A stretch of 64,000 nt of DNA, taken from Actinomycetes bacterium (GTDB lineage Bacteria; Actinomycetota; Coriobacteriia; WRKU01; WQUG01). This document shows, in pieces, positions 28,397 to 62,896 of the stretch; position 1 is the first letter of the stretch, and each line of letters begins with the position of its first letter. The position numbers were made by a program, and so were the translations under genes. Location of the stretch: contig JAISUC010000003.1 in NCBI GenBank assembly GCA_031272275.1, forward strand, positions 92,214 to 156,213, in the 5' to 3' direction. The notes beneath the pieces are model-generated. The model searched no databases. It was not told where the DNA came from and saw only the letters and a list, made by a program, of their open reading frames with translations.

Positions 28397-28579
28397 GGGC
28401 TTCGATTATTCCCTCCCTGTTGGCGGCGTGGTCCTCTATCTCTGGTGCGACCTATTGTAGCAGAGGCGGCTTCTGTTTCCTCGCCCCAGAGGGAACAATA
28501 GGGGTGGGGCATTCTCGGCCCACGTCTTCAGCAGACCGTGTAGAATGGTGCATGCGCCCGAACAGATAAGGAGAGCTTG

Positions 28580-29773: not shown

Positions 29774-29815
29774 TAAGCTTCACGGGGGCACGCACGAGCG
29801 CAGCCCAGTCTTTTT

Positions 29816-32197: not shown

Positions 32198-33219
32198 AAC
32201 ATGCAGGTTTCGGGTGACATCGCACTATCTGCTCTGTATGCTCCCGATAGGATTCGACGCCACCAGGTCGTATTATTCAGGTACCAATCGATTGTGTTCT
32301 GAATACCTTCCGCAAACGTAATCGAGGGCATCCAGTCCAGTTCCTCTCGGATTTTCCCGGCGTCAATTGCATAGCGCAAATCATGGCCTTTTCGATCAGT
32401 CACAAACTGTATCAAACTGTCCGGTTTATCCAGTGCCGACAGTATCATTCGCACAACCTCTATGTTGGCGTGTTCGTTGTTCCCGCCGACGTTATAGATT
32501 TCACCGGCGGCACCTTTCCGCACAATCCGGTCGACTGCATTCACGTGATCACGTACGTGCAACCAATCGCGAACGTTTTGTCCTTTTCCGTAAACGGGCA
32601 AGGGCTTGTCAGCCAAGGCGTTGGTAATCATCAAAGGGATCAGCTTTTCCGGAAACTGCCACGGACCATAGTTGTTCGAGCAACGCGATATTGTTGCAGG
32701 TAGTCCATAGGTACGCACGTATGCCTGGATCAAGAGGTCGGCAGCTGCTTTTGAGGCCGAATAGGGGCTTGATGCATGCAGTGGAGTCGTTTCCGTAAAC
32801 TGTAGGTCCGGGCGATCCAGTGGCAGGTCACCATAGACTTCGTCGGTTGATATCTGATGGAACCGCGGGACATCGTACTTCAGGCAGGCATCCATCAAGA
32901 CTTGCGTGCCGATGATGTTGCTCCGCAGAAAAACTTGTGGCGAGACGATAGAACGGTCTACGTGTGTTTCTGCGGCATAGTTAATAACCACATCAAAGCG
33001 ATGCCGGGAAAACAAAGCATCAATTGACTGTGCGTCGCAAATGTCAGCATGCACAAACTCAAAGCCATCAGTTTTGATTGCATCGGCAAGCGTTTCCCAG
33101 TTTCCTGAATAGGTCAGTGCATCGACTCCGACAACCACGTCTTTAGCGTGATGTTCCAACAGGTAATACACGTGGTTTGCACCGATGAAACCGGCGCAGC
33201 CGGTAATAAGAAACTTCAT
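32194..33219 (-). CDS. rfbB: dTDP-glucose 4,6-dehydratase
   Basis: ITGCAGFIGAN and YSASKAAADLL (YxxxK). 341 aa, directly downstream of rfbA. Confidence 0.92.
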   Translation of the reverse strand: MKFLITGCAGFIGANHVYYLLEHHAKDVVVGVDALTYSGNWETLADAIKTDGFEFVHADICDAQSIDALFSRHRFDVVINYAAETHVDRSIVSPQVFLRSNIIGTQVLMDACLKYDVPRFHQISTDEVYGDLPLDRPDLQFTETTPLHASSPYSASKAAADLLIQAYVRTYGLPATISRCSNNYGPWQFPEKLIPLMITNALADKPLPVYGKGQNVRDWLHVRDHVNAVDRIVRKGAAGEIYNVGGNNEHANIEVVRMILSALDKPDSLIQFVTDRKGHDLRYAIDAGKIREELDWMPSITFAEGIQNTIDWYLNNTTWWRRILSGAYRADSAMSPETCML

Positions 33220-33221
33220 TA

Positions 33222-34103
33222 TTAATCCTTTGCTCCCACCAACGAGATGAGATACTGTCCGTATTCGGTCATGTCCAATGCTTGCCCGATACTATACAAT
33301 GCGTTGTCATCGATAAAACCACGACGCCACGCGATCTCTTCAATGCACGAGACATAAAACCCCTGTCGAGACTGGACTGCCTTGACGAATTCGGCCGCCT
33401 CTATCAATCCTGCGCACGATCCGGTATCAAGCCACGCTATTCCCCTTCCCAGGGTCAAGGTGCGTAACCGGGTTTCTGCTAGGTACGCGTTGTTTATGGC
33501 GGAAATTTCTATTTCGCCGCGTGCCGAGGGTTTGATATTTCGTGCTTTTTCCAGAACAGTGTTGTCGTATAAATACAGACCCGGTATAGCGAATTTTGAG
33601 CGGGGATGCTCTGGCTTTTCTTCTATCGAGAGGACCTCACCACGCTCATTGAACTCGACGACACCGAATTGCCGGGGGTCCTTGACCGGGTAGCTGAAAA
33701 TGACCGCTCCACCCTGTTCTGCCAACAACACCTGTGCCTTTTCGAGGGTGAGTGTCAGGTTCTGTCCATAAAAGATGTTGTCCCCTAAAATCAGGCAGAC
33801 GTCCTCATCCTCTATAAAATCGGCTCCGACGATGAACGCGTCCGCCAGTCCCTTCGGCTCTGATTGTTCAGCATAGTCAAAGCGCATTCCCAGCTGTGTG
33901 CCATCACCCAGCAGGTCACGGTAACTACCCAAATCACGTGGTGTCGAGATAATCAGAACGTCCCGAATGCCAGCCAGCATCAGGACTGACAGGGGATAAT
34001 AAATCATGGGTTTGTCATAGATTGGTAAAAGGTGTTTCGAGATACCCTTGGTTATCGGGTAAAGACGGGTACCTCGTCCTCCTGCCAAAATAATCCCCTT
34101 CAT
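33222..34103 (-). CDS. rfbA: Glucose-1-phosphate thymidylyltransferase
   Basis: MKGIILAGGRGTRLYPIT, 293 aa, RmlA-type throughout. Confidence 0.93.
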   Translation of the reverse strand: MKGIILAGGRGTRLYPITKGISKHLLPIYDKPMIYYPLSVLMLAGIRDVLIISTPRDLGSYRDLLGDGTQLGMRFDYAEQSEPKGLADAFIVGADFIEDEDVCLILGDNIFYGQNLTLTLEKAQVLLAEQGGAVIFSYPVKDPRQFGVVEFNERGEVLSIEEKPEHPRSKFAIPGLYLYDNTVLEKARNIKPSARGEIEISAINNAYLAETRLRTLTLGRGIAWLDTGSCAGLIEAAEFVKAVQSRQGFYVSCIEEIAWRRGFIDDNALYSIGQALDMTEYGQYLISLVGAKD

Positions 34104-34154
34104 GTTCGTTATTCCCTCCCTGTTGCGCAGCTTCCGGGGTGTGTCATATCCGGT

Positions 34155-34877
34155 TTATCGGCTCCACGTGTCGTGCCTTACGAATACATACTGTATCGTA
34201 TCCGGAACACATCCTGCCTTAATGTGTGCTTTCAGTGATGCAGGATTGTTGGATGAAATCGGGGTGAGCAGGACTCGTTGCCCCATTGCGCGCGTCCGTT
34301 CCAGACCGGCACGCACAATCAGTCCGGACAGTCCCCGTGATTGGTATGGGGGATACATGCCGCAGAGTGCAACTTTGCACGTACCGAGGTCTGCTTCGCG
34401 CAACAACGTGAAACCAACCGGCATCCCTTCAAAAAGCAGAATCACAAGGTCTGCATTTCTTGCAATTTCATCTCGAATCCAATTGCAGTAACGGCGTGCT
34501 GCAATACGGGGACCAAACACCGGGTCAAGTGCTATTCTGTCGGTTGTGAATAATCCGGACTCGACGGCTTGTAGTAACTCATCGACATCAGCATCCAGTG
34601 CTAGGCGAAAACAGGTGTCCGACTCCGACCCTGAATCTGCAATTTTCAGCGTGTCTGCTCTTAGCGTAAACAGGGATTCGGCATAGTGGAAACCCAGCGT
34701 GGACAGCTCTTCGTACAGGTCAAGTCGACCAATTGGACTTTTTACCACACAGTAACGCGATTTGTCATATGCCAATACATCACGCACATTCTGCAAGTCT
34801 TCGCTGCCATCCAATTCAATCTCATGCGTCTCAACACCCAGATTTCGTTTCTCCCAAACAGCGTCGATGATTCTCAT
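34155..34877 (-). CDS. GNAT-type N-acetyltransferase, WecD/TDP-fucosamine acetyltransferase-like
   Basis: ~240 aa. The N-terminal non-GNAT domain (IIDAVWEKRNLGVETHEI) is followed by a GNAT core (QSRGLSGLIVRAGLERTRAMG). It sits between the sugar aminotransferase/GT2 genes and rfbA. The start (34877 or 34889) is uncertain. Confidence 0.65.
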   Translation of the reverse strand: MRIIDAVWEKRNLGVETHEIELDGSEDLQNVRDVLAYDKSRYCVVKSPIGRLDLYEELSTLGFHYAESLFTLRADTLKIADSGSESDTCFRLALDADVDELLQAVESGLFTTDRIALDPVFGPRIAARRYCNWIRDEIARNADLVILLFEGMPVGFTLLREADLGTCKVALCGMYPPYQSRGLSGLIVRAGLERTRAMGQRVLLTPISSNNPASLKAHIKAGCVPDTIQYVFVRHDTWSR

Positions 34878-35860
34878 TGTGAATTGCACCCGCAGTCATT
34901 CTTGGTCCACTCGGTGCCATGATCGGGTTTTTCGTCAAGTGCGCCTGTCGTCTGTCTGACCACATACTGTGGTGACATGTTTTGAATAATGTACGTGCGT
35001 CCGACGTATTCACCAATGATACCCAGCAATATCATAATCATGCCGCTGGTAAACAAGAGGACAGCCATCATTGAGCTATATCCTGCCGGCACCGACGGAT
35101 TCAGAATCTTGTGAACGATAGTGAACAGCGTCCACACAAATCCGACTAATGCGCACAATCCACCAAAGACAGTGGCAACACGTAACGGCTTCACTGAAAA
35201 CGCAGTGGCGCCATTCAGCCAGAGTGCCAGTAATTTGTGCAGGCTATAGTTCGAGATTCCACGTTCGCGGCTGCGGTGATTAACCTCGACGGTGTTGATG
35301 CGATTGGTGGTGCGGAAAACTAAACCGGCCAGATAGGGATACGAGTTGTGGTAACGCAGCATTTCGGTAATGACAAAACGCCTGCACGCAAAGAAGCTGG
35401 TGGTTCTAATCTGTCGCGGCTTACCGATCAATACGACCATCATCAGATCATTGATGCGTGAACCCAGCACGCGAAAGGGGTTCTGCCTGATATGGGGATA
35501 GGATCCATATACCACATCGCTACCCTGTTGCAGCTTATCAATCAGCTTAAAGCTCTCGTCGACCGGTGTTTGTCCATCGTCATCCAATGAAACAATCACG
35601 GATCCGGAACAACAGCGGTATCCTGCCATCAACGCTGCGTGTTGACCGAAGTTTTTTGCCAGTTCGACTCCCGTTACACGTCGATCACCTTGAGCCATAT
35701 GGGCGATGACCGAATAGACTTCATCGGGTGAGCCGTCACTGACTAGCACTATTTCGTACTTTTGCTCGGGGTGCGTTGACATCAGGGCATGGATTTCTTC
35801 AACCACCCCTTCTATTGTTCCCGCAGAGTTATAGCAGGGAATCACAAAGGAAATATCCAT
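34874..35860 (-). CDS. Polyprenyl-phosphate glycosyltransferase (GtrB/ArnC/CsbB-like GT2 with two C-terminal TM helices)
   Basis: ISFVIPCYNS, LVSDGSPDE and SLDDDGQ, plus a C-terminal TM pair ending IIGEYVGRTY, the hallmark of the GtrB/DPM1-like family. 328 aa. Confidence 0.8.
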   Translation of the reverse strand: MDISFVIPCYNSAGTIEGVVEEIHALMSTHPEQKYEIVLVSDGSPDEVYSVIAHMAQGDRRVTGVELAKNFGQHAALMAGYRCCSGSVIVSLDDDGQTPVDESFKLIDKLQQGSDVVYGSYPHIRQNPFRVLGSRINDLMMVVLIGKPRQIRTTSFFACRRFVITEMLRYHNSYPYLAGLVFRTTNRINTVEVNHRSRERGISNYSLHKLLALWLNGATAFSVKPLRVATVFGGLCALVGFVWTLFTIVHKILNPSVPAGYSSMMAVLLFTSGMIMILLGIIGEYVGRTYIIQNMSPQYVVRQTTGALDEKPDHGTEWTKNDCGCNSQ

Positions 35861-35864
35861 GCGG

Positions 35865-37076
35865 CTACCCCTTTCCCTTGCCGTTACGCCTATCTTTGAA
35901 GAATGATTCTATAGCAGTAACGACTCTATCGATTTCGACTTGCTTCAAACCATAAAACAGGGGGAGTCGAACGAGACGTTCACTTTCGACCGTCGTAAAT
36001 CGGTCCTCTCCACAGAATCGCCCAAACTGCTGACCACCCGGTGAACTATGTAAGGGGACATAGTGAAAGACTGCCTGAATTCCCCGTTCTCTGAGGTGTG
36101 AAATCAACGCCGTTCGTTCAGCCAAATCAGCGCATTTCACCCAGAAAAGATGAGCGTTGTGCTCACAGCCTGCAGGTATCTGTGGCAATTCAAGCAGACC
36201 TGCATCCTGCAAATGACGCAGTCCGTCGTAGTAATGCCGCCAGCCGCTCAGACGATTCAGGTTTACCGGTTCGAGTTCAGCCAGCTGAGGCAACAGGAAT
36301 GCCGCGTTCAATTCGCCGGGGAGGTAGGATGACCCTACATCAACCCAAGTGTATTTGTCGATCTGCCCGTTCAGGAATTGCGCCCGGTTGGTCCCTTTTT
36401 GCCAGATGATCTCGGCTCGCTCGCTGAAAGACTCATTTTTCAGCAGCAAGGCACCACCCTCGCCCATGTGGTAGTTTTTCGTTTCATGAAAACTGAGGCA
36501 ACCCGCTTCCCCCATGCTCCCCAAGGGACGTCCCTTGTAGCTTGCCATGAGTCCTTGTGCCGCATCTTCAATGACAGCGAGCCCATGCTCGGCAGCCAAC
36601 GCACAGATGGCATCCATTTCGCAGCTGACACCGGCATAATGCACGGGGACGATAGCGCGGGTACGTGGGGTGATTGCAGCTTCAATCAGATTCTCGTCCA
36701 AGTTCATGGTGTCGGGGCGGATATCAATAAAAACCGGCGTAGCCCCGTGTAATACAAAAGCATTTGCTGTGCTGACAAAGGTGTATGACGGCATAATGAC
36801 CTCATCACCTGGTTGCAGATCCAGCATCAATGCGCACATTTCCAAGGCGCTGGAGCAAGAGGTGGTCAACAGTACTTTGCGGACTCGACAGTGCTGCTCC
36901 AATAAGGTTTGGCATTGCTTAGTCATAGCGCCATCGCCGGAAAAGGACACACCGCGCAGCACTTGCGCGATACCGTCCAGCTCAGTTCCCAGCACCAAGG
37001 GACGGTTGAACGGAATCACTGAATCCGTGAGTCTATTGGCGGAATCGTTATTTTGTGACAATTGAATCAATCCCAT
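35865..37076 (-). CDS. DegT/DnrJ/EryC1/WecE-family PLP-dependent sugar aminotransferase (dTDP-4-keto-6-deoxyhexose 4-aminotransferase-like)
   Basis: IPFNRPLVLGTELDG at the N-terminus and the PLP-lysine motif SFHETKN. The track ORF start at 37268 lies inside the upstream gene. I chose the ATG at 37076 (MGLIQ), but the start is uncertain. Confidence 0.8.
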   Translation of the reverse strand: MGLIQLSQNNDSANRLTDSVIPFNRPLVLGTELDGIAQVLRGVSFSGDGAMTKQCQTLLEQHCRVRKVLLTTSCSSALEMCALMLDLQPGDEVIMPSYTFVSTANAFVLHGATPVFIDIRPDTMNLDENLIEAAITPRTRAIVPVHYAGVSCEMDAICALAAEHGLAVIEDAAQGLMASYKGRPLGSMGEAGCLSFHETKNYHMGEGGALLLKNESFSERAEIIWQKGTNRAQFLNGQIDKYTWVDVGSSYLPGELNAAFLLPQLAELEPVNLNRLSGWRHYYDGLRHLQDAGLLELPQIPAGCEHNAHLFWVKCADLAERTALISHLRERGIQAVFHYVPLHSSPGGQQFGRFCGEDRFTTVESERLVRLPLFYGLKQVEIDRVVTAIESFFKDRRNGKGKG

Positions 37077-38421
37077 GCGCACGGGAATAACCGATGTTGT
37101 ACCAGTAGCTGGGATCATCGTGGATGTCTTCCAGTTTATAGGCACCGACATATTTCGAGGTGATTTCGGGGTATGCAGTGACGGAGAGATCCCTCTTGCC
37201 GTCGCGCACTTGTTTGCGAACGCTCGCCTCGCGTTTGTTCGATTCGCTGCGATAGTGATAGATGCCATAGACGCCGGGCACTATCGTGGTCGCCAGAAGA
37301 AATGCCACAACCAGTGCTGCGAATACGCCGATTGCATGGGCAGTTTCTTTTTGTTTCCGGTCACGTAGCGCGGATAGAGCCGATCCGCACGCGATGATAA
37401 CCAGGGTCGTCATTCCCAGAAACACCCGACCTGCCGCCGTTCCCGAGGGAGCCAACACCATTGAAAAGGCGGAAGCCAGTCCGCCGACAAAAAAGAGCGC
37501 CGCATAGCCTTTGTCACGACGACGGCGGCTCATCACCAATAGGAAAGCAAAAAGTATCAGAAACAACAAAAACAGCTGGATCGTATCGTTGGTCACATAT
37601 GACAGCGGAACCTCGAAACGGGTTTCCAATACCTTGGCCATGCCGCCTGCGGGATTGGGAAAATAGGCTGCCCGCTCTGCGTTTCCTGGAGCGCGCACCA
37701 GGAAGTACAGCCCGATCAGCTGACCCACAATTCCGGCTGCCGATTTCAGCATCCAGTCGAGCCCGCGTTTACGGTACCCCCAGGTCAATACCAAACTGAT
37801 CAGCAGACACGCTCCGGATAGCGGTGGCGTCATCCAGCCGACAATCAATCCGAACACAGCAAACCCTAGGATTGCCGGAATACGGAGCGGAATGGCACGT
37901 TCCGGCGCATCGGTTTTCGGTTTGCGATCCAGCAGGCGCAGATAACCCAAGATCGCGGTCATTGGCCACATGTAGGCGACCGTCCCGACGCGCCACAAAA
38001 AGACCTGTCCGAAACAGATGGTGAACACCCAAACGGCACAGAACAGGAACAACAACAGCAAACAATCATGTTTTCGGCGCGGATGCGACAACCGGTACAT
38101 TAGCAAGATCATTCCCAGAAATACGCCTGCATTCAAGAAATCAAAAACGGTTTCCGATAACACCAAAAAACCCGCGTTAATCGCGAATGTAACGAATACT
38201 CCTCCGCCGCTATGCAGATAATAGTATTTCACGGAAGAGAGTACTTGCTCCATCGACGACATCATCGAGCGTTCGAAGTCATCGGCAATCAGTGGGGTCC
38301 AGATGTTCAGTGTGAGCATGAACAGGAAAATCGCCAGACATATAACAATAAATATGAGGCGCGCGTTGCGCTCGGATTTGTCAGTCATGTTTCGAACGCT
38401 GCGGTGCTTCCCTTCAGGCAT
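37048..38421 (-). CDS. Polytopic membrane protein, candidate GT-C-fold glycosyltransferase
   Basis: 457 aa, ~11-12 TM, with an acidic motif in the first extracytoplasmic loop (TPLIADDFE). It is first in the operon that also encodes the polyprenyl-P GT2. The functional call is an inference. Confidence 0.5.
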   Translation of the reverse strand: MPEGKHRSVRNMTDKSERNARLIFIVICLAIFLFMLTLNIWTPLIADDFERSMMSSMEQVLSSVKYYYLHSGGGVFVTFAINAGFLVLSETVFDFLNAGVFLGMILLMYRLSHPRRKHDCLLLLFLFCAVWVFTICFGQVFLWRVGTVAYMWPMTAILGYLRLLDRKPKTDAPERAIPLRIPAILGFAVFGLIVGWMTPPLSGACLLISLVLTWGYRKRGLDWMLKSAAGIVGQLIGLYFLVRAPGNAERAAYFPNPAGGMAKVLETRFEVPLSYVTNDTIQLFLLFLILFAFLLVMSRRRRDKGYAALFFVGGLASAFSMVLAPSGTAAGRVFLGMTTLVIIACGSALSALRDRKQKETAHAIGVFAALVVAFLLATTIVPGVYGIYHYRSESNKREASVRKQVRDGKRDLSVTAYPEITSKYVGAYKLEDIHDDPSYWYNIGYSRAHGIDSIVTK

Positions 38422-38547
38422 GGATCAAGGCCTCATTTCTGAAATGATAGTCATTTTTGATGATAGTACGATAGCATATTGCATGCGATACTGAAAATGT
38501 TATGTCACAACCGGTAAGCCACGATTTCTGTACCGTGTGATGTACCG

Positions 38548-40023
38548 ATGTCGATTGAAAGGCGGGGAACTGCGGCGGTGGTCGTTACGATGGATAAACA
38601 ACGCAAAGAAACCATTCTGTGGCTGGTGTCTTGCGTGCTGGTTTCTGTGGCGACATTGTTTGCGGGGCGTTATCTGTACTTTCTGCATGGATTACCCCGT
38701 CTTTATTTTGCGACACCGCTGTTGGTTTGTTCAGCGGTGCTGCTGTATGCGTTCCTGTTTCGTAGGCGCGGGTTCACCCTGCGTGATGAATTGCGCTCTA
38801 GTTGGCCTTTGCTTCTGCTGGCATTGATGGATGCGGGATACCTGATTATTGCGTACTGTTTGGCCAGGGTATTGCACTGGGAGAACCTCCCTTCACCACG
38901 TTGGTGGCTGAATATCCTTTTTGCTGTGCTGGCATCCTACGCGGCCTTTTTGCTGGGGCGTGTGAATATCGGTCGCAGACGTGCACTGATTGCGAACTTT
39001 TTGGCGGTGTTTCTGGCGATTTCATTGTTGTTTGGCGCATTTCAGTATCTGCAATATGCGGGTTACAGCAATCCGGTTGCAGGTGCCATCCATGTCTTAA
39101 ATGTGGGGACGGCAAAGCTCTACGGAATGTGGGAATGGAATGCTTCTGAGGTGGGGATACGAGTAGCGGGTATCAATACCGATCCTGTGGCTTTTATGTT
39201 TCCCGCGATGGTCGGTGTTGCTTGGGTTTTCGGGGTGAGTGATGTCAGGTGGCGACGCATTCTGATCGGCATACTGTCATTGGGAATCATCTTTCTCAGC
39301 GGTTCGCGTGGCGCATTGATCGTGACCGGAGTTATGTCGATTGTCTATCTGGTTCGACGGGTGGCTCAGTCGAGAAAAAAAGAATCGGTGGGCCAATCGG
39401 ACCGACGTAAATGGGTTTGGTTCGGTTTGGGCTTACTGCTGGTGATACTCGTCGCTGTGATAGTGTTTTGGGTATTCGGATCCAACGGATTGGTGCTGCG
39501 CCTGCGATCTATCGCGGATGATGTTTCACGCAACGGTGTTACTCTGACGACGATTGATACCGCCCTGTCGGGACGGTTAACGGTATGGCGACTGGCATTC
39601 CAGTCTATTGCGCAACACCCTTTCGGGACATGGCATCCCTTAGGAAACTTGTCCGGGACAACTCTGTTTGGCAGTGATATCACTTACTGGCATGCTCATA
39701 ATGACCTCTTGCAACGTTGGGTAATAGGGGGACCGCTTCTCAGTGCTGTTTTGGTGTTGATGTTCGTATGGATGTATATCCGCTGGAAACAGGATCGTCT
39801 GCATCCTGTGGCGACTGATTTCGGTCTGTACTTTTTCTTGGTTGTCGTGTTGTCAGGTTTGACCGAATCGGTCTTTTTCGACAAAGCATTCCTCGTTCTC
39901 GGCTTCTTTGTTTTGGGAATCCTTACCCAGTCCCCATGCGCAGCGGGTGCAGTCGACGAGGACAGACGGGACGTACTCCCCCCCATGAAGGAAGATGTCA
40001 CTGATGTCTACGGGACGACCTAA
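38548..40023 (+). CDS. O-antigen ligase / polymerase (Wzy_C, WaaL-like) family membrane protein
   Basis: ~12 TM with an SGSRGALIV motif and a large external loop before the last TMs. The start is uncertain (38548 or 38590). The C-terminal tail contains the 15-mer motif. Confidence 0.7.
   Translation: MSIERRGTAAVVVTMDKQRKETILWLVSCVLVSVATLFAGRYLYFLHGLPRLYFATPLLVCSAVLLYAFLFRRRGFTLRDELRSSWPLLLLALMDAGYLIIAYCLARVLHWENLPSPRWWLNILFAVLASYAAFLLGRVNIGRRRALIANFLAVFLAISLLFGAFQYLQYAGYSNPVAGAIHVLNVGTAKLYGMWEWNASEVGIRVAGINTDPVAFMFPAMVGVAWVFGVSDVRWRRILIGILSLGIIFLSGSRGALIVTGVMSIVYLVRRVAQSRKKESVGQSDRRKWVWFGLGLLLVILVAVIVFWVFGSNGLVLRLRSIADDVSRNGVTLTTIDTALSGRLTVWRLAFQSIAQHPFGTWHPLGNLSGTTLFGSDITYWHAHNDLLQRWVIGGPLLSAVLVLMFVWMYIRWKQDRLHPVATDFGLYFFLVVVLSGLTESVFFDKAFLVLGFFVLGILTQSPCAAGAVDEDRRDVLPPMKEDVTDVYGTT
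39968..39984 (+). repeat. 15-mer motif copy GGGACGTACTCCCCCCC, intragenic (3' tail of the ligase-like gene)
   Basis: Exact core, read as R-D-V-L-P-P in the gene frame. Confidence 0.9.
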
Positions 40024-40176: not shown

Positions 40177-41493
40177 GTGTCCGAAAACAAACAGGTTTAC
40201 ATTGCGATTTCTGCCGATATCATTCATAACGGTCACATCAACGTGATTGAACAGGGTGCGGCCCTGGGTGACGTGGTCATCGGTTTGTTGTCCGATGACG
40301 CAATCGCCGCATACAAACGTGCCCCGCTGCTGGATTGGGATACCCGTGCGCGGGTCTTTGCCAGCATCAAAGGGGTCACACGTGTGGTCAAACAAGAAAC
40401 GCTGTCCTATGCGGACAACTTGCGCGCGATTCGTCCCACATATGTTGTGCACGGCGACGATTGGAAAAGCGGAGTGCAGTCCCAGGTGCGCGAAGAGGTG
40501 GTGCGGATTCTGGCGGAACAGGGTGGCGAACTGATCGAGGTTCCCTATACGCGTGATGTGTCGGCGACCTCCCTGGAACGGCAGTTGCGCTCGGTGTATG
40601 GTACTCCCGATATGCGACGGGGCAAGTTGCGCCAGCTGTTGGGTCTGAAACCTTGGATTCGCGCGATCGAGGCATCGAACGGTTTGACCGGTCTGATTGC
40701 GGAAAATGCGCGAGTCGAAGATGCTGCAACCGGTGCCGTACGCGAATTCGATGCGATGTGGGTCAGCTCGCTGTGCGATTCGACCTTTAAAGGCAAGCCG
40801 GATATCGAACTGGTCGATCTGACCAGTCGCGTGAACACCATCAATGAAATCATGGAGGTCACGACCAAGCCGATTATTCTGGACGGTGACACCGGCGGAC
40901 GGACCGAGCACTTCACCTATAACGTCCGCACGCTCGAGCGACTGGGTGTGTCCGCGATCATCGTCGAGGACAAAACCGGCCTGAAACAAAACTCGCTATT
41001 TGGCACCGACGTGCAGCAAACCCTGGACGACCCGCACGAGTTCGCGCGCAAAATGCATGCGGGCAAAGCCGCACAGGCAACCCGTGACTTTATGATATTT
41101 GCGCGTCTGGAGTCCCTGATTGCCGGCATCGGCGTCGACGACGCGCTGGAACGCGCCGACATCTACCTGCACGAAGGCGGCGTGGATGGTCTGATGATTC
41201 ACAGCAAACAGAAAGACGGCGCCGAAATTTTCGAGTTCAGCGACCGATTCCGCCAACGCTACCCCAAAGTTCCGCTGATCTTTGTGCCGACGTCGTACAA
41301 TCAGTTCACCGAATCCGAGCTGGCAGACCACGGCGCTAACATTATCATCTATGCCAACCACCTGTTGCGCAGCGCCTATCCCGCAATGATGGAAACCGCA
41401 ACGACCATTCTGACCGCCGGACGCAGCAAAGAGGTCGACGACCGGTGCCTGCCCATCAAAGAGGTTCTGCGTCTGATTCCGAACGAACTGTGA
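40177..41493 (+). CDS. pepM: Fusion: HxGH cytidylyltransferase-like domain plus phosphoenolpyruvate mutase (PepM/Ppm)
   Basis: GTG start after AGGAGAG. The N-terminal ~130 aa has IIHNGHINVI (HxGH) and VVHGDDW. The C-terminal part carries the PEP-mutase signature EDKTGLKQNS (EDKx5NS) and an isocitrate-lyase-superfamily core. Confidence 0.9.
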   Translation: MSENKQVYIAISADIIHNGHINVIEQGAALGDVVIGLLSDDAIAAYKRAPLLDWDTRARVFASIKGVTRVVKQETLSYADNLRAIRPTYVVHGDDWKSGVQSQVREEVVRILAEQGGELIEVPYTRDVSATSLERQLRSVYGTPDMRRGKLRQLLGLKPWIRAIEASNGLTGLIAENARVEDAATGAVREFDAMWVSSLCDSTFKGKPDIELVDLTSRVNTINEIMEVTTKPIILDGDTGGRTEHFTYNVRTLERLGVSAIIVEDKTGLKQNSLFGTDVQQTLDDPHEFARKMHAGKAAQATRDFMIFARLESLIAGIGVDDALERADIYLHEGGVDGLMIHSKQKDGAEIFEFSDRFRQRYPKVPLIFVPTSYNQFTESELADHGANIIIYANHLLRSAYPAMMETATTILTAGRSKEVDDRCLPIKEVLRLIPNEL

Positions 41494-41498
41494 TCGCG

Positions 41499-42677
41499 AT
41501 GATTGCACCCGACGATTTCATACACGCCGTGAAAGATGCCGGGTTGGATCTGTACGCCGGCGTCCCCGATTCGCTGCTCAAAGAACTGTGTGCCTGCTTG
41601 CGCGACACGGTGCCGGCGGACCGAAACATCATCACCGCCAACGAAGGCAACGCCATCGCGCTGGCTGCCGGCTATCACATCGCGACCGGCAAAGCGGGCG
41701 TAGTCTACATGCAAAACAGCGGTCAGGGAAACGCCGTGAATCCGCTGGCGTCGTTAACCGATCCGGCAGTCTATGCCATCCCCATGCTGCTGCTGATCGG
41801 ATGGCGCGGACAACCCGGTGTCACCGATGAGCCCCAGCACGTCAAACAGGGTGAAATCACCTTAGATCTGCTGCACGTACTGGGCGTTCCCTATCGTGTA
41901 CTGTCGGCGGACTGGCACACCGACCTGGCCGAAATGCTCCGCATCATGCGCGCGCAAAACACGCCCGTGGCACTCGTCATCCCCAAAGGCAGCTTTCAGC
42001 GCTACACTCCCCCGATTAACGACGTGGAAAACACGGCGGGCAAGCACGTCCCCGCGTCCACGGCAGACCGGGATTTGCCGCTACTGCGCGAACAGGCACT
42101 GTCGCTGGTGCTGGACGCCGTCGATCCGGGAGATTTCCTGGTCACAACCACGGGCAAGACCTCGCGTGAACTGTTTGAACTGCGCGAGGCACGCGGTGAT
42201 GGGCATACGCAGGACTTTTTGACCGTGGGTTCGATGGGACACACGGCATCCATTGCGTTCGGGATGGCGCTGGAATCCAACCGGCGCGTGTGGTGCATTG
42301 ACGGCGACGGTTCGTTTTTGATGCATCTGGGTGGCTTGGCGGTTATTGCACAAAATATGCCCGACAATTTCCGTTATGTGTTGAATAACAACGGCGCGCA
42401 CGAATCGGTGGGCGGACAACCGACGGTGGCACGCGACATCGACATAGCGGGCATTTTGCAGGCGATGGGTTTCTTGCGCGTGTTCACGGCGTGCAATGCC
42501 GATGAACTGACCTGTGTCTTGCATCAGATGGCTGACCTGCCGGGCAGCGCCCTGATTATCGAAACACGACCGGGTTCGCGTGACGACTTGGGTCGACCCA
42601 CCACAACACCACAGGAAAATAAAGTTGCCATGATGCGTGCGTTTGCAGGCGACGAAGGAACTGAATCGGCGGGATAG
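41499..42677 (+). CDS. ppd: Phosphonopyruvate decarboxylase (ThDP-dependent)
   Basis: GVPDSLLKELC at the N-terminus, ANEGNAIALAAGY, and ThDP motif IDGDGSFLMH...NNGAHESVGG. It starts 6 nt after the pepM stop. Confidence 0.88.
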   Translation: MIAPDDFIHAVKDAGLDLYAGVPDSLLKELCACLRDTVPADRNIITANEGNAIALAAGYHIATGKAGVVYMQNSGQGNAVNPLASLTDPAVYAIPMLLLIGWRGQPGVTDEPQHVKQGEITLDLLHVLGVPYRVLSADWHTDLAEMLRIMRAQNTPVALVIPKGSFQRYTPPINDVENTAGKHVPASTADRDLPLLREQALSLVLDAVDPGDFLVTTTGKTSRELFELREARGDGHTQDFLTVGSMGHTASIAFGMALESNRRVWCIDGDGSFLMHLGGLAVIAQNMPDNFRYVLNNNGAHESVGGQPTVARDIDIAGILQAMGFLRVFTACNADELTCVLHQMADLPGSALIIETRPGSRDDLGRPTTTPQENKVAMMRAFAGDEGTESAG

Positions 42678-42774
42678 GCGACAGCGCACACCACAAGGTG
42701 TCAGTCCGTCGCGCGCGACGGGGCGGACAGACAATCGATTAGGCATTTGACAGGTAAAGGACAGAAAGAATCAG

Positions 42775-44625
42775 ATGAAAGCGGTTATTTTTAACTCGGG
42801 TATCGGCAAGCGTATGGGGGAATTCACCCGCACGCAGCACAAGTCGATGGCACGCCTGGCAAATGGCGAGACCCTGTTTGCACGCCAGTTGCGCCTGTTG
42901 CGTGCGGCGGGCATTCGTGATTTTGTGGTGACAACCGGTCCTTTTGCCGACCAGTTACAACAAACGGTACATGCCGCGCGTTATGCGGATTGCCGGGTGA
43001 CGTTTGTTGAAAACCCCGATTACGCAACGACGAACTATATCGTCTCGATGCACCGGGCTGCCGCTTATCTGGACGACGACCTGTTGTTTTTGCATGGTGA
43101 CTTGGTGTTCGATGCGGATTATCCAGGCGTGGTGATGAATGCACCGTACCGGGACCTAGGTTCGGTGAACACAAAGCTGTCGTTGCCCGAAAAGGACTTC
43201 AAAGCCAGAGTAATCGACGGCCGTGTGCGCGAGGTTTCGGTCGGCATTTTCGGCGATGACTGCGTGGCGTTTCAGCCGTTTTACAAGCTGTCGCGTGCAA
43301 CTGCCGCAGCCTGGCTGGCACGGGTTGCCGATTTCGTTGCTGCAGGGAACACGCAGGTGTATGCGGAAAACGCACTGAATGAATTGTTGGCTGATCTACC
43401 GGTGCATGCATTCAGTTATGCGGATCACTACGTCGAAGAGATTGACACCACAGATGACCTGGCACGCGTGTCCGCGGCCATCCGCGACTATGATTTCGCG
43501 CAGCAACCGACCGTGACCGATGACACCGAATCGGCGTTGCAAGTGTTGCTGGATCAGGTGGGTGCTGTTACGCGCCCCATGCTTGTTGCTGGCATCGCAC
43601 CGGACAGGCTGGGGTTGACCGAAACCTTGGACCGCTGGCGCAGTACCGGTGCGGTCATCACCGGATTCAGCAATTTTTCCCCGAATCCGACCTACGAACA
43701 GGTCGCAGCAGGTGTGCGCCTGTTTCGTGATGCCGACTGTGATGCGCTGGTGTCGCTGGGTGGTGGCAGTGCCATCGACACCGCCAAATGCATCAAACTG
43801 TATGGCGGGCTGGATCTGAGCGGTGACACCGATCTCACTGACGCCGTGCCCCTGAATGTGCCCCATATCGCCATCCCCACCACAGCAGGCACCGGCAGCG
43901 AGGCCACGCGCTTTGCGGTCATTTATCGCGACGGAGCCAAACAGTCGGTGACCCACGACGGCATCGTGCCGGATGCAGCGCTACTGGATGCGGCACTGTT
44001 GGCGGGGCTTCCCGATTACCAGCGCAAGGCAACCTTGCTGGATGCACTGGCACAGGCCATCGAGTCCTGGTGGTCGGTCAACTCGACCCCACAGTCAATC
44101 GACTATTCCCGCCGCGCCATCGCGCTGATACTGCCTGCAATCGACGGCTTTCTGGCGGGGGATGACACGGCTGCGTCGGCGATGCTACAGGCGGCCAACT
44201 TAGCGGGGCGCGCCATCAACCTGACCCAGACCACGGCGGCCCACGCGATGAGCTATAAAGTGACGTCGCTCATGGGTCCCGCGCACGGGCACGCGGTGGC
44301 ACTGTGCCTGCCGGGTGTCTGGCGCTATGCGATCACTCATCCGGATGCCTGTATCGATTCACGCGGGGGGGAGTATCTCGCTCGCGTCTTGGATGATCTG
44401 GCGGCATCGTTCGGGGTCGCAACGGCAGCTGATGCCCCCGAGCGGTTTGCGCAGATCCTTGCGGGCTTTGACTTGCCCCCGGTCACAGCGGGCCCACAGA
44501 CAATCGAGATCCTGTGCGCGTCGGTAAACTCGGACCGTCTGCGTAACTTCCCCATCCGCCTGTCCGCAGATGCAATACGCGCGATATATACGCAGGCGTT
44601 GTCGACGGGGGCCATGCATGAGTAA
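42775..44625 (+). CDS. Fusion: LicC/PntC-like nucleotidyltransferase plus iron-containing alcohol dehydrogenase (phosphonoacetaldehyde reductase-like)
   Basis: N-terminus MKAVIFNSGIGKRMG (NTP-transferase loop). The C-terminal half has GGGSAIDTAKC and PTTAGTGSEATRFAV, plus His-rich metal ligands of Fe-ADHs. 616 aa. Confidence 0.8.
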   Translation: MKAVIFNSGIGKRMGEFTRTQHKSMARLANGETLFARQLRLLRAAGIRDFVVTTGPFADQLQQTVHAARYADCRVTFVENPDYATTNYIVSMHRAAAYLDDDLLFLHGDLVFDADYPGVVMNAPYRDLGSVNTKLSLPEKDFKARVIDGRVREVSVGIFGDDCVAFQPFYKLSRATAAAWLARVADFVAAGNTQVYAENALNELLADLPVHAFSYADHYVEEIDTTDDLARVSAAIRDYDFAQQPTVTDDTESALQVLLDQVGAVTRPMLVAGIAPDRLGLTETLDRWRSTGAVITGFSNFSPNPTYEQVAAGVRLFRDADCDALVSLGGGSAIDTAKCIKLYGGLDLSGDTDLTDAVPLNVPHIAIPTTAGTGSEATRFAVIYRDGAKQSVTHDGIVPDAALLDAALLAGLPDYQRKATLLDALAQAIESWWSVNSTPQSIDYSRRAIALILPAIDGFLAGDDTAASAMLQAANLAGRAINLTQTTAAHAMSYKVTSLMGPAHGHAVALCLPGVWRYAITHPDACIDSRGGEYLARVLDDLAASFGVATAADAPERFAQILAGFDLPPVTAGPQTIEILCASVNSDRLRNFPIRLSADAIRAIYTQALSTGAMHE

Positions 44626-46849
44626 CCACGCCATGCACGAGTTGCAGCGCTATGGGCTCGAGATGCTGAAAACATTCGATGCGTTCTGCCGGGAGCATAG
44701 CTTGCCCTATTACCTCGGCGAAGGTACCCTGTTGGGTGCCGTGCGTCATGGGGGCTACATTCCTTGGGATGACGATGTCGATGTGATGATGCTGCGCGAG
44801 GACTATGACCGATTTGTCCGGCTGGCGCGCGAGCACTATCCGGCGCAGCACGTATTGGACTGCATCGACACCAACGATAAGCACTGGTCGATTTGCGCAA
44901 AACTGCAGTTGGCACGCCAAACACCGTATTATTTGGCGCGGTTTGCGGGGCTTGCGCTGAGCAACAACCCCTGCATCGATATTTTTCCGCTGGATCACGT
45001 GGCATCCGACCACGGGCTTCGGCTATGGTGGCAGGCGGCGCGTTCCCGTCTGTATCGACGGGTCCTATGGGTCAAGCTGGGGGTGCATAATTGTTTCACG
45101 CACAAGACCTTGACCGGTCGATTGACGAAGTTCTACCCGTTCAAATTGCTGTCGCTGTTTTTCAGTAAGGATTTTTTGCAGCGTCACCTGGAGTCCACCA
45201 TCCGTGCGCAGAACCGCAACACGAATGCCGCCTATGTGGCGAACTTCGGCAGCCTGTATCCGGTCAAGCGTGAGGTCTGGCCCGTGTCATGGTTTGAGCC
45301 GGTGCCGCACCGGTTCGAGGATCTGGATAGTTTCATTCCCGCCGGATACGACGCGCTGTTACGCCGTGTCTATGGCGATTACATGCAGCTGCCGCCGGCA
45401 GAGGATCGTGTGCCGAAACACAACTATGCGCGCCGTATCGGTGCACCCGGCGAGGACGAACAATTGCGGCTGAGTCGCGGGGAAACGGTCAAGCGCCGCT
45501 TGCAGCTGACGGTGCGGCGCATACGTAAAAAGCTCGTGCGACCGCTCCGCCTGTTGGTGGTGGTGTTGGGCAAACGATTCCCGGGAATCAAGCACCGCTG
45601 GAACGATATGATTATCGATCGACGGCGTGCGCGCTATCAACGTTTGGCCGCAACGATCTCCATTGATCACAAACTGGTCTTTTTCCAGTCCTTTATGGGA
45701 CGCGGCTATACCGACAGCCCCAAGGCGCTGTATCGCGCAATGCTGGCAGACCCCCGCTTTGACGACTACCGGTTTGTGTGGGCATTTCGCGACCCCAAAA
45801 AATATCGCCATCATCCGGATATGAAACGCGCCCAGGTGGTTCGCCATAACTCCGACGAGTTCTATCAGGCTTTTGCAGCTGCGGGAACCTGGATAATGAA
45901 CCTGCGCATACATGCCTGGGTCGACCCCAAGCCGGGACAAGTCTTCGTGCAGACGTGGCACGGCACGCCGCTGAAACGTATCGGCTGCGACATCGAGGTG
46001 CAGACTGCCGGGGCGATTAGTGACAATCAGGACCTTGCAGAGAAATTCCGCATTGACTCCCCCAAACAAACTTGGTTTTTGTCACCGTCGGAATTTGCCA
46101 GCGACTGCTTCCGCACGGCGTTCGATATGGCGCGCTATCACGACCACGACATCATCATCCAAGAGGGCTACCCGCGAAACGATTTTCTGGTGAATTATAC
46201 GCCGCATGACGTTGCCGCCATCAAAAAACGCCTGCTGATTCCCGATGACAAAAAGGTGCTGCTGTATGCGCCGACCTGGCGTGATGACCAACACGATGCG
46301 CGGGTGGGCTATACGTTTCGGGCGGAGCTGGATTTCGATCGCCTGCAGGAAGAATTGGGCGACGACTGGGTGGTGCTGTTTCGGGCGCACTATTATGTGG
46401 CCAGTAGTTTCGATTTCAGCCGCTATCTGGGGTTTGTCTATGATGTCTCGGGCGAAGACGACATCAGCGAACTGTATGTGGTTTCCGACGTGCTGGTGAC
46501 CGATTATTCCAGTTCGTTTTTCGACTATGCGGTGCTGGGTCGCCCCATTTTGTTTTATATGTACGACTACGAATTTTATGCTGGGCAGCTGCGCGGGTTT
46601 TACCTGTCGCTGGATGGGTTACCCGGTCCGATTTCACAGACACAGGATGCGCTGTTGGACGACTTGGCGCGATTGGATGAAATTTCGGGGGAGTATGCCG
46701 AACGCTATGCGGCATTCCGGGCGCGCTATTGCGCTCTGGACGATGGTCATGTCAGCGAACGGGTGCTGCAACGGGTGTTTTTCGGGGACGATGCTGCCGG
46801 TACAGGTGATGTGATTGACGGGAACACGACCGATGGAGGCGGGCAATGA
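44618..46849 (+). CDS. Fusion: LicD-family phosphotransferase plus TagF-family glycerophosphotransferase
   Basis: N-terminal LicD motifs YYLGEGTLLGAVRHGGYIPWDDDVDVMM. The C-terminal part has QTWHGTPLKRIG, LYAPTWRDD and VTDYSSSFFDYAVLGRPILFYMYD. The ATG at 44618 overlaps the upstream stop. Confidence 0.85.
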   Translation: MSNHAMHELQRYGLEMLKTFDAFCREHSLPYYLGEGTLLGAVRHGGYIPWDDDVDVMMLREDYDRFVRLAREHYPAQHVLDCIDTNDKHWSICAKLQLARQTPYYLARFAGLALSNNPCIDIFPLDHVASDHGLRLWWQAARSRLYRRVLWVKLGVHNCFTHKTLTGRLTKFYPFKLLSLFFSKDFLQRHLESTIRAQNRNTNAAYVANFGSLYPVKREVWPVSWFEPVPHRFEDLDSFIPAGYDALLRRVYGDYMQLPPAEDRVPKHNYARRIGAPGEDEQLRLSRGETVKRRLQLTVRRIRKKLVRPLRLLVVVLGKRFPGIKHRWNDMIIDRRRARYQRLAATISIDHKLVFFQSFMGRGYTDSPKALYRAMLADPRFDDYRFVWAFRDPKKYRHHPDMKRAQVVRHNSDEFYQAFAAAGTWIMNLRIHAWVDPKPGQVFVQTWHGTPLKRIGCDIEVQTAGAISDNQDLAEKFRIDSPKQTWFLSPSEFASDCFRTAFDMARYHDHDIIIQEGYPRNDFLVNYTPHDVAAIKKRLLIPDDKKVLLYAPTWRDDQHDARVGYTFRAELDFDRLQEELGDDWVVLFRAHYYVASSFDFSRYLGFVYDVSGEDDISELYVVSDVLVTDYSSSFFDYAVLGRPILFYMYDYEFYAGQLRGFYLSLDGLPGPISQTQDALLDDLARLDEISGEYAERYAAFRARYCALDDGHVSERVLQRVFFGDDAAGTGDVIDGNTTDGGGQ

Positions 46850-47256
46850 AACGAGTGCTGACCTACGGAACCTTTGATTTGCTGCATCACGGGCATATCC
46901 GTATCCTGCGGCGTGCCCGAGAAATGGGCGATTACCTGGTTGTTGCCGTGTCGACCGACGAATTCAATGCCGGCAAGGGCAAGAAATCCTATATGGATTA
47001 TGCGACACGCGCAGAAATCGTCGCGGCCATTCGTTATGTGGACAAGGTCATCCCCGAACGCAGCTGGGAGCAAAAGGTCGAAGACATTGTCGACAACGAC
47101 ATCGACATTGTCGTGATGGGCGATGACTGGGCGGACAGTGATCGCTTCGATTATCTGCGTGATTACTGCGAGCTGGTATTCCTGCCGCGCACTGAAGGTG
47201 TATCAACCACCGAAATCAAGGAAGACCTGCGCCGCGAGGGCAAGCTGTTGGATTGA
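46846..47256 (+). CDS. tagD: Glycerol-3-phosphate cytidylyltransferase
   Basis: TYGTFDLLHHGHIRIL (HxGH) and RTEGVSTTEIK (RTxGISTT). 136 aa, with an ATGA overlap onto the upstream gene. Confidence 0.92.
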   Translation: MKRVLTYGTFDLLHHGHIRILRRAREMGDYLVVAVSTDEFNAGKGKKSYMDYATRAEIVAAIRYVDKVIPERSWEQKVEDIVDNDIDIVVMGDDWADSDRFDYLRDYCELVFLPRTEGVSTTEIKEDLRREGKLLD

Positions 47257-60684: not shown

Positions 60685-60744
60685 CTGACCGTATCGTGTG
60701 TCTTATTAAGAACACCCGACAGGACGCTGAAAAGTTGCAGTGAA

Positions 60745-61101: not shown

Positions 61102-61182
61102 GTTCAAAACCTCCTCAAAAGACGGGTGGTACACTTCATTCTAACACTGACGGATGCCGTTTCAGAAAGGTATAGGGACAAA

Positions 61183-62601: not shown

Positions 62602-62789
62602 TGCTCTGCGTGCTGTATGCGCAATGGCTGTAACCGTTGAAACAACCTCAGGTATATCCACCCTCATTGCGAGCGCGCGGTAGCGCGCGCGGCAATGCAT
62701 GCGGCGACGTCAGTCGCCGGACAACAGGTCCCGTCACGCGGTTTTCGTGGCGGGGGCATTGTCCCCTGTGCGGGGCAGAACGTATCGTC

Positions 62790-62805: not shown

Positions 62806-62896
62806 ATTGTTTGTGCGCGTCCGCTATCATAGAACGGCAAGTCACCTGAACGGAAATGTACGGAACCGTCCCAACATATGAAAGGAGTGCCACAGT

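Follow-up and report, generated by a model that had tools for sequence, protein, structure and literature searches.

A putative 2-hydroxyethylphosphonate tailoring cassette adjoining teichoic-acid-type genes in a Coriobacteriia contig

The cytidylyltransferase (CyT) domain of Fom1 makes CMP-2-hydroxyethylphosphonate (CMP-HEP; that is, HEP activated with cytidine monophosphate) from cytidine triphosphate (CTP) and HEP (Rice 2019, PMC6697681). Nucleotidyl activation of phosphonates, LicD-like genes nearby and fusions of nucleotidyltransferases (NTs) to phosphoenolpyruvate (PEP) mutase (Ppm) have likewise been published, the fusions comprising about 60% of Ppm proteins and including an NT-CyT-Ppm type (PMC6697681). 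One such activating enzyme, Tde1415, is a fusion of PntC with a 2-aminoethylphosphonate (AEP) transaminase that produces CMP-AEP, and Glu104 of its PntC domain (Tde-PntC) contacts the AEP amine; the steps past C–P bond formation are described as enigmatic, with only AEP cytidylylation demonstrated (Rice 2019, PMC6697681). The HEP branch, which runs through PhpC-like iron-dependent alcohol dehydrogenases (Fe-ADHs), accounts for 8.5% of ppm neighbourhoods and has two isolated products, one of which is a HEP conjugate of a Stackebrandtia exopolysaccharide (Li and Horsman 2022, PMC8942020), and, according to the papers that cite the original work, HEP conjugates were purified from two actinomycete exopolysaccharides (Yu 2014). 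In Actinobacillus pleuropneumoniae, the LicD-family enzyme CpsC polymerizes glycerol 3-phosphate (Gro3P) from CDP-glycerol together with CpsA (PF04464) and CpsB, which synthesizes CDP-glycerol (Litschko et al. 2024, PMC11666461). Here we analyse an operon of five genes (g1–g5, positions 40177-47256) that brings together relatives of several of these enzymes in a 64,000-nucleotide stretch of contig JAISUC010000003.1 (assembly GCA_031272275.1; Coriobacteriia), hereafter the window.

We propose, with a probability of roughly 0.6, that this operon is a cassette for HEP 'phosphonyl tailoring' that is linked to the glycerol-phosphate chemistry of teichoic acids. Its genes are five co-directional, tightly packed plus-strand open reading frames (ORFs; Table 1). 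The first, g1, has a GTG start with AGGAGA 8 nt upstream, and is followed after 5 nt by g2 if the latter begins at ATG 41499, which is the likely start and is preferred over the GTG at 41445 that opens the ORF and would produce a 49-nt overlap with g1. The only real spacer (97 nt) lies between g2 and g3. If g4 begins at ATG 44618, probably its start within the longest ORF (44570-46849), it overlaps g3 by 8 nt, and g4 and g5 overlap by 4 nt (ATGA), so that co-translation is implied at both junctions. A scan of 38-49 kb found no convincing terminator inside the operon; in the same interval, promoter-like sites occurred at chance level (6 found versus 5.4 expected) and terminator-like sites in modest excess (18 versus 11.1 expected, s.d. 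3.6), and an Rfam scan of the whole window gave no matches. The GC content of the operon (0.575-0.594) is near that of the flanking housekeeping DNA and the closest homologues are only about 50% identical, and recent horizontal transfer of the operon is therefore unsupported. Of six window proteins looked up in 90%-identity clusters, each belongs to a cluster with one or two members. A GroEL search puts the source organism in the Coriobacteriia, its closest named matches being 85-90% identical. As a separate observation, the g2–g3 spacer (42678-42774) contains a GC-rich hairpin at approximately 42704-42728 (fold -28.3 kcal/mol, a modest z of -2.5 against shuffles) that is not followed by a T-run and has no counterpart in Rfam.

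The C–P bond-forming part of the pathway is the most firmly assigned. The product of g1 combines a cytidylyltransferase domain (amino acids 6-138, approximately nt 40192-40590; CTP_transf_like PF01467, 6.6e-11) with a PEP mutase domain (amino acids 151-436, approximately nt 40627-41484; PEP_mutase PF13714, 2.8e-46). By family it is a PEP mutase, with mutase activity predicted: it passes the equivalog cut-off of NCBIfam TIGR02320 (376.4 bits; cut-off 319.55), lies below those of phosphonopyruvate hydrolase (142.9 versus 374.4) and methylisocitrate lyase (79.8 versus 354.4), matches the PEP mutases 5unc and 1m1b, and contains EDKTGLKQNS, an instance of the active-site signature EDKx5NS by which Ppm is told apart from the rest of its family (the N of g1 aligns with a T in phosphonopyruvate hydrolase 2dua). 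The N-terminal domain has an HNGH (HxGH) motif and, judged by its match to the Fom1 CyTase structure 5x3d (residues 6-138; E 2e-44), is a close homologue of the Fom1 cytidylyltransferase, with CMP-HEP formation predicted. Adjoining the Ppm gene, g2 encodes an enzyme with TPP_enzyme_N and TPP_enzyme_C domains that passes the TIGR03297 equivalog cut-off for phosphonopyruvate decarboxylase (Ppd; 426.3 bits, cut-off 312.5).

The branch point is set by g3, a fusion of a nucleotidyltransferase (amino acids 1 to ~235; NTP_transf_3 PF12804, 1.1e-11, or NTP_transferase PF00483) with an Fe-ADH (amino acids ~250-616; Fe-ADH PF00465 and ADH_Fe_C PF25137). The best NCBIfam model for the dehydrogenase is TIGR03405 Phn_Fe-ADH (E 3.6e-44), and its metal-site residues are D423/Q427/H490/H504, with Gln in second place as in the best PDB match, 6jko; the enzyme is an Fe-ADH of a subfamily separate from TIGR03405 and a predicted phosphonoacetaldehyde reductase. 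The N-terminal domain carries a glycine-rich NTP loop (GIGKRMG) and weakly matches PntC of Tde1415 (6pd1; E 2.3e-06) and LicC (1jyk; E 3.2e-04). The acidic residue that contacts the amine in these enzymes (Glu104 in Tde-PntC, Asp105 in LicC) is not kept in g3. In its place, within an alignment that left out the second amine contact (Glu196), stands His107, which is invariant in 15 homologues with the same NT-ADH fusion, and this replacement is consistent with a substrate that has an uncharged hydroxyl, such as HEP. The only aminotransferase found in the window is a DegT-type sugar aminotransferase outside the operon (35865-37268, minus strand), and no window ORF scanned with Pfam matched a class-V aminotransferase (that is, the AEP transaminase (AEPT) type); as no transaminase was detected, HEP rather than AEP is predicted, and we consider it highly probable from these sequences that the operon makes HEP. 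A catabolic role for the dehydrogenase (HEP oxidation) was considered and rejected, given that Ppm and Ppd are biosynthetic and that no phosphonatase genes were seen.

The last two genes supply transferase and glycerol-phosphate functions. In g4, a LicD domain (PF04991, 8.2e-37, model positions 1-227 of 227; approximately nt 44687-45376) is joined by a basic linker to a TagF-type domain (Glyphos_transf PF04464, 3.4e-105; approximately nt 45647-46780). The LicD part has an acidic DxD-type motif (DDDVDV) and weakly matches FKRP (6kaj). The TagF part matches Staphylococcus epidermidis TagF (3l7i; E 8e-89) and keeps both catalytic histidines, which lie in WHGT and RAHY and align to H444 and H584 (the residues changed in the mutants 3l7j, H444N, and 3l7m, H584A). 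It scores below the NCBIfam equivalog cut-offs for TarF (312 versus 550), TarL (99 versus 1000) and TarB (57.9 versus 500), and it is a member of the TarF/TagF family, TagF/TarF-like rather than TagB-like, without being the equivalog of a named enzyme. The product of g5 (CTP_transf_like, 1.9e-25; motifs HHGH and RTEGVSTT, of the RTxGISTT type) passes the equivalog cut-off of TIGR01518 (181.3 bits; cut-off 165.4) and is thus TagD. A hidden Markov model (HMM) census of the whole window found a single LicD domain (g4) and a single TagD (g5), and five Glyphos_transf (TagF-like) domains, that of g4 included, lie within a span of 40 kb; the sole CDP-glycerol synthase found for these five domains therefore sits in the operon.

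A preliminary description of the window, made from its sequence, agrees with much of this. Its five co-directional genes with gaps of at most ~100 nt or overlaps were recovered with the same coordinates and domains by Pfam and translation, and profile-HMM searches found every domain that it had named (PEP_mutase, LicD, Glyphos_transf, Fe-ADH and NTP_transferase). The entry to phosphonoacetaldehyde through PepM and Ppd, the EDKx5NS signature, the glycerol-phosphate chemistry of TagD and TagF, and the preference for HEP over AEP on the ground that the operon has no aminotransferase all hold on the evidence above, as far as sequence can tell, and the methylisocitrate-lyase-type active site that it had raised as a possible objection is disfavoured by the model scores of g1.

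The cassette recurs in other genomes. Relatives of g3 number 5615 in the database at E <= 1e-10, with more than 100 full-length relatives at about 50% identity and many NT-ADH-LicD triple fusions of ~910 amino acids among them. We compared neighbourhoods in the best 80 of 567 confirmed places, all from other species, found through g3 relatives with one genome per species. Ppd adjoins the ADH in 76 of these 80 loci, Ppm is present in 70 and a Fom1-like domain in 60, and this arrangement is not due to chance. The core is near-constant and its fusions vary ([CyT-Ppm][Ppd][NT-ADH]; [NT-CyT-Ppm][ADH][Ppd]; [Ppm][Ppd][NT-ADH]; [CyT-Ppm][Ppd][NT-ADH-LicD]). Profile HMMs detected LicD in 31/80 loci, a TagF-like domain in 16/80, both in 13/80 and TagD in 4/80. 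The carriers are metagenome-assembled genomes (MAGs) of the classes Clostridia and Bacilli, many from animal or human gut or rumen, together with the cultivable Yeguia hominis NSJ-40 (locus L011), Microbacterium, Muribaculaceae and the Propionibacteriaceae Micropruina, Propionicimonas, Arachnia and Tessaracoccus. The neighbourhood comparison proposed in the preliminary description returned the cassette with LicD or TagF in part of the loci, and the arrangement is not unique to the window.

Four of these loci are especially informative. In one Oscillospiraceae locus (L018), a single operon encodes TagF-like, TagF, TagD, TagG, TagH, [CyT-Ppm], Ppd and [NT-ADH-LicD] proteins and thereby matches all eight catalytic domains of the window operon; in this locus the HEP enzymes have LicD fused to them, a link that supports a role for LicD as the HEP transferase. 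In L001, a single protein of 1,079 amino acids has the architecture [ADH-TagF-LicD], and in an Arachnia locus (L034) the products include [NT-ADH-LicD], [TagF-GT4] and [GT2-LicD]. In an Eubacteriales locus (L091), Bac_transf, [LicD-TagF], TagD, Ppd, [NT-ADH], an ABC transporter, LicD and [CyT-Ppm] are interleaved. Judged by sequence and gene content, HEP synthesis goes together with LicD transfer and glycerol-phosphate transfer as a functional set that recurs across several Gram-positive lineages. In three further loci, another Fe-ADH-like domain, divergent from the g3 ADH (28-33% identity) and fused to TagF, LicD or NT, lies just downstream of the HEP core (Table 1).

Combining these observations, we envision the following route. 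The Ppm domain of g1 would convert PEP to phosphonopyruvate, which Ppd (g2) would irreversibly decarboxylate to phosphonoacetaldehyde, and the Fe-ADH domain of g3 would reduce this to HEP. HEP and CTP would then yield CMP-HEP by the action of either the Fom1-like domain of g1 or the PntC-like one of g3, if not of both: g1 is favoured because of the Fom1 precedent, and g3 because of the precedent of the PntC-AEPT fusion and the ten loci that lack a Fom1-like domain. Activation of HEP as its CMP derivative is, by homology, very probable whichever domain performs it. In parallel, TagD (g5) would make CDP-glycerol, from which the TagF domain of g4 could add glycerol phosphate to a lipid-linked wall polymer at the cytoplasmic face of the membrane. 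The LicD domain of g4, which on balance we take to be the HEP transferase, would move the phosphonyl group from CMP-HEP to a hydroxyl of the polymer; we infer that the acceptor is most simply the glycerol that has just been added and that the resulting end or side group is glycerol-O-P(O)(OH)-CH2CH2OH. By partial hydrolysis of Glycomyces and Stackebrandtia phosphonoglycans, Yu and colleagues reportedly obtained 2-HEP mono(2,3-dihydroxypropyl) ester, which would be the HEP–glycerol link predicted here. Export would fall to the TagGH-type ABC transporter encoded at 18725-20785. We count it in favour of this proposal that a teichoic-acid locus, with TagGH, TarI and four more TagF-like genes, lies next to the operon, and a wall polymer is, from gene context, a likely destination for HEP.

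Several observations weigh against the proposal. Every assignment in it rests on sequence and gene context; the g3 ADH, at 151 bits, falls below the curated TIGR03405 threshold of 423.7; the two nucleotidyltransferase domains, kept in 60/80 loci, are not both accounted for; and TagO, TagA, a TagB-type primase and an LCP ligase were not found among the window ORFs scanned, and may lie elsewhere on the 198-kb contig. The remaining points concern the LicD domain. Its mean identity is 38% to LicDs fused to NT-ADH and 40% to the LicDs of a family of ~930-amino-acid LicD-TagF proteins; at class-specific positions it has four residues of the HEP class, seven of the non-HEP class and four of neither; and in L091 a separate stand-alone LicD beside CyT-Ppm could be the HEP transferase there. 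Moreover, CDP-glycerol could be the donor of the g4 LicD, given that CpsC, of the LicD family, polymerizes Gro3P from it in concert with CpsA of PF04464 (PMC11666461). The preliminary description had read the nucleotidyltransferase domains and LicD as nucleotide activation followed by transfer; the first part is strengthened by the Fom1- and PntC-type homology, and the second, with the CpsC precedent and near-equidistant LicD classes, stands only as a proposal.

These points lend most weight to a different reading, unlikely in our judgement yet the best of the alternatives, in which g4 and g5 are a glycerol-phosphate-only module, a fused analogue of CpsA/CpsC/CpsB with both g4 domains using CDP-glycerol; CMP-HEP would then have to be moved by one of the four other TagF-like paralogues of the window, which might take it as a mimic of CDP-glycerol, or by a LicD outside the window. 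Apart from the class-specific residues and the precedent of CpsC, this reading draws on a neighbour-joining tree in which the g4 LicD falls with its counterparts from LicD-TagF proteins lacking a neighbouring ppm, on L091 (in which a LicD-TagF protein is accompanied by the additional LicD) and on the translational coupling of TagD to g4; neither the tree nor the residue count decides which donor the g4 LicD uses. It has to contend, however, with the g4 LicD being the sole LicD domain in 64 kb and with the overlap of g4 with the stop codon of g3, the HEP-forming gene, as well as with relatives in which the single LicD is fused to NT-ADH (L018) or ADH, TagF and LicD are joined in one protein (L001). 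Furthermore, the TagF domain of g4 shares 47-53% identity with stand-alone TagFs, among them the paralogue encoded at 20794 in the window, versus 25-28% with the TagF domains of the ~930-amino-acid family; this low identity indicates that the g4 fusion arose independently, and the function of the fusion in that family need not carry over.

LicD and TagF have in fact been fused in at least three separate ways, in g4, in the ~930-amino-acid family and, in the order TagF-LicD, in L001 and L003. The idea that LicD-TagF fusions are phosphonate-specific in general was rejected, as the ~930-amino-acid family lies mostly beside a gene for a short-chain dehydrogenase/reductase (SDR)-cytidylyltransferase with no ppm nearby. 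Such two-gene cassettes occur in L085-L090 (L088 included; approximately 8842-12800 in L085), where an SDR-CTP_transf_like fusion of ~375 amino acids is followed by the ~930-amino-acid LicD-TagF protein, on Clostridia-type metagenome contigs and MAGs, pig gut included. No phosphonate genes lie near these cassettes, which look like self-contained polyol-phosphate polymer modules, and we found no description of them.

A second alternative, which we regard as distinctly improbable, places HEP in the polymer backbone: TagF would extend the HEP hydroxyl and LicD would add the next HEP, giving a poly(glycerol-phosphate/HEP) chain with C–P bonds. A transferred HEP would indeed keep a free primary hydroxyl two carbons from phosphorus, resembling the hydroxyl that TagF normally extends; the repeated fusion of LicD with TagF is in keeping with such a partnership, and some TagF-like polymerases with two domains, such as Cps3D/Cps7D, are known to perform two transfers in alternation (PMC11666461). 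Yet LicD is present in 31/80 loci versus TagF in 16/80, indicating that HEP transfer needs no TagF partner, and the known HEP conjugates, as related by the papers citing Yu 2014, are substituents on glycans.

Beyond tailoring as such, HEP might serve a structural or signalling purpose within the teichoic acid, either in an alternating HEP/glycerol-phosphate backbone or as a terminal cap, placed by LicD, that stops TagF elongation and is read by Wzt_C as an export signal; to this we give little credence. In O-antigen exporters, Wzt_C recognizes the cap at the chain terminus, and by analogy the Wzt_C domain of the TagH-like ATPase in the window may mean that the exported teichoic acid carries a defined terminal cap, possibly HEP. 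Terminal caps are known in ABC-transporter-dependent O-antigens, which a HEP-cap export signal would mirror.

It is very improbable that the product of the operon is a small, diffusible phosphonate, with CMP-HEP a transient as in fosfomycin biosynthesis and with LicD-TagF and TagD merely neighbours. Fom1-like architecture, Ppd and Fe-ADH do correspond to the early fosfomycin steps (Rice 2019, PMC6697681), but genes for fosfomycin-type tailoring (a methyltransferase, an epoxidase or a CMP-phosphonate hydrolase), peptide formation or export were not found in or beside the operon, the g3–g4 and g4–g5 overlaps imply co-translation, and LicD is fused directly to NT-ADH in many relatives. Least credible of all is AEP as the product, its amino group coming from an aminotransferase elsewhere (for example, the DegT enzyme encoded 3 kb upstream) and the ADH having another role: AEP is the commonest cell-surface phosphonate (56% of ppm neighbourhoods; PMC8942020), but DegT-family enzymes use nucleotide-linked keto-sugars and this gene sits with RmlA and RmlB, no class-V AEPT was seen in the window, the ADH forms part of a nucleotidyltransferase fusion and is conserved beside Ppd in 76/80 loci, and the amine-binding Glu of PntC has become an invariant His.

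Table 1 Features of the phosphonate operon, of the surrounding window and of three related loci
Feature	Position	Strand	Basis
g1, Fom1-like cytidylyltransferase + PEP mutase	40177-41493	+	Pfam, NCBIfam, PDB match, motifs
g2, phosphonopyruvate decarboxylase (thiamine diphosphate enzyme)	41499-42677	+	Pfam, TIGR03297
g3, LicC/PntC-like nucleotidyltransferase + Fe-alcohol dehydrogenase	42775-44625	+	Pfam, TIGR03405, PDB matches
g4, LicD + TagF-type CDP-glycerol glycerophosphotransferase	44618-46849	+	Pfam, 3l7i match
g5, TagD glycerol-3-phosphate cytidylyltransferase	46846-47256	+	TIGR01518, motifs
Wzy_C (O-antigen-ligase-like) membrane protein	38548-40023	+	PF04932 5.5e-12; 153 nt upstream of g1
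TagG-like ABC-2 permease	18725-19546	+	Pfam ABC2_membrane
TagH-like ATPase	19550-20785	+	ABC_tran + C-terminal Wzt_C PF14524, 37.5 bits versus cut-off 30.4
TarF/TagF-like paralogue	20794-22101		47% identical to g4 TagF domain (BLAST)
TagF-like protein, 677 amino acids	22050-24083		
TarI-like cytidylyltransferase	24096-24818		
SDR	24843-25919		
TagF-like protein	25882-27222	-	
TagF-like (Glyphos_transf) protein	7942-9264	-	
Second Fe-ADH-like domain locus, L002	12038-15979		
Second Fe-ADH-like domain locus, L029	12768-17372		
Second Fe-ADH-like domain locus, L032	12447-16577		

The surroundings of the operon are those of a wall teichoic acid locus, in that a TagGH exporter, polyol-phosphate transferases and CDP-polyol synthases are clustered (Table 1). 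From its domains, the TagGH-type transporter is the likely, predicted polymer exporter, and TagGH-like pairs also lie within the related operons L018 and L091; the TarI-like gene and the SDR gene beside it suggest a second CDP-polyol donor. The transcription unit may start with the Wzy_C gene upstream of g1; a Wzy_C gene likewise adjoins the related cassette of L091. Further genes of the upstream locus encode a pyruvyl transferase, GT2 glycosyltransferases, RmlA/RmlB, the DegT aminotransferase and DUF6056; no choline kinase, choline transporter or HEP dioxygenase was seen in the window. Downstream lie an M23 peptidase gene and then housekeeping genes (S6, SSB, L9 and DnaB).

A few features of the window stand apart from the operon. 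The region at approximately 26000-40000, which holds the pyruvyl transferase, GT2, RmlA/RmlB, DegT, DUF6056 and Wzy_C genes, is a low-GC island (0.48-0.50 versus 0.57-0.63 elsewhere) and may, within the glycopolymer locus, be a segment that is variable or was acquired horizontally. The FolD ORF (60112-62049, plus strand) has an N-terminal extension of ~360 amino acids with no Pfam match, and in the L9 ORF (49836-50546, plus strand; 236 amino acids) the domains end at residue 147; these extensions could be start-codon artefacts or real. Four ORFs of 244-472 amino acids have no Pfam family (34155-34889, minus; 1401-2819, plus; 62648-63943, minus; 10631-11524, minus), of which the first, of 244 amino acids, lies within the glycan locus, flanked by RmlA and a GT2 gene.

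How much of this is new needs to be stated with care. The preliminary description spoke of an undescribed system, which is too strong: g3 has 5615 relatives, the cassette occupies 567 places in species genomes, and both HEP neighbourhoods (PMC8942020) and HEP glycans have been published. The enzymes and the logic of the pathway are not new and would not surprise a specialist; not previously described are the teichoic-acid setting, the LicD-TagF fusion found here, the predicted glycerol-phosphate–HEP unit and the role of the second nucleotidyltransferase. In the literature searched, which mostly excluded subscription-journal papers, we found no description of a phosphonate-bearing teichoic acid, of the NT-ADH fusion family or of a LicD-TagF fusion. 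For the window itself, the outcome is a well-supported annotation and a testable model rather than a new kind of system. More generally, the alternative fusions (NT-ADH-LicD, ADH-TagF-LicD, and LicD-TagF with TagD) name proteins and substrates with which to approach the question of how surface phosphonates are attached, and to what. To our knowledge, no product has been isolated from the groups in which the cassette is common (Clostridia and Bacilli MAGs, Propionibacteriaceae and Coriobacteriia). If the model is correct, the walls of these organisms would carry phosphorus that resists phosphatases and phosphodiesterases, which could affect phage adsorption, host recognition, wall turnover at phosphate limitation and phosphorus cycling.

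Among known systems, the early fosfomycin pathway of Streptomyces wedmorensis shares with this operon a PF01467 CyTase N-terminal to Ppm, a Ppd, an Fe-ADH leading to HEP, and CMP-HEP itself; its Ppd and Fe-ADH are Fom2 and FomC, respectively. That pathway goes on to a methyltransferase, a CMP-phosphonate hydrolase and an epoxidase, whereas none of these was found in the window operon, which has LicD-TagF and TagD instead; CMP-HEP here would be a polymer donor, and the ADH carries an additional PF12804 nucleotidyltransferase. Olsenella and Atopobium, like the source of the window, are members of the Coriobacteriia. The Pnt clusters of Treponema denticola, Atopobium rimae and Olsenella uli have in common with the operon an NTase-Ppm fusion, Ppd, a LicC-like nucleotidyltransferase fused to the branch-point enzyme, LicD-like genes nearby and a proposed cell-surface destination (PMC6697681). 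They make AEP by a transaminase, whereas in the operon an Fe-ADH takes that place, Glu104 is replaced by His, and LicD is joined to TagF, with TagD next in order. The phosphonoglycans of Glycomyces and Stackebrandtia (J Bacteriol 196:1768), as far as the citing papers describe them, likewise have HEP on an extracellular glycan, isolated experimentally there and predicted here; their carrier is a methylated galactan exopolysaccharide of mycelial actinomycetes, in contrast to the TagGH/TagF/TarI locus of the window.

As in the pneumococcal Lic pathway (LicC, LicD1/LicD2), CTP activation would be performed by a PF12804 enzyme and LicD would transfer the head group to teichoic acid at the cytoplasmic face, ahead of export; unlike that pathway, the head group here would be made de novo from PEP with a C–P bond, and LicD is fused to a glycerophosphotransferase. 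The CpsA/CpsB/CpsC module (PMC11666461) has the same three components as g4 and g5 (a PF04464 enzyme, a LicD-family enzyme and a CDP-glycerol synthase), but as three separate proteins without phosphonate genes, and its LicD member uses CDP-glycerol; the g4 TagF domain is TarF-like (312 bits versus 58 for TarB). Finally, the operon and its neighbourhood share with the Tag systems of wall teichoic acid a TagD equivalog, a TagF with both catalytic histidines and a TagG/TagH-type exporter, and differ from them in that LicD stands in place of the TagF N-terminal domain in g4 and that TagH carries Wzt_C.

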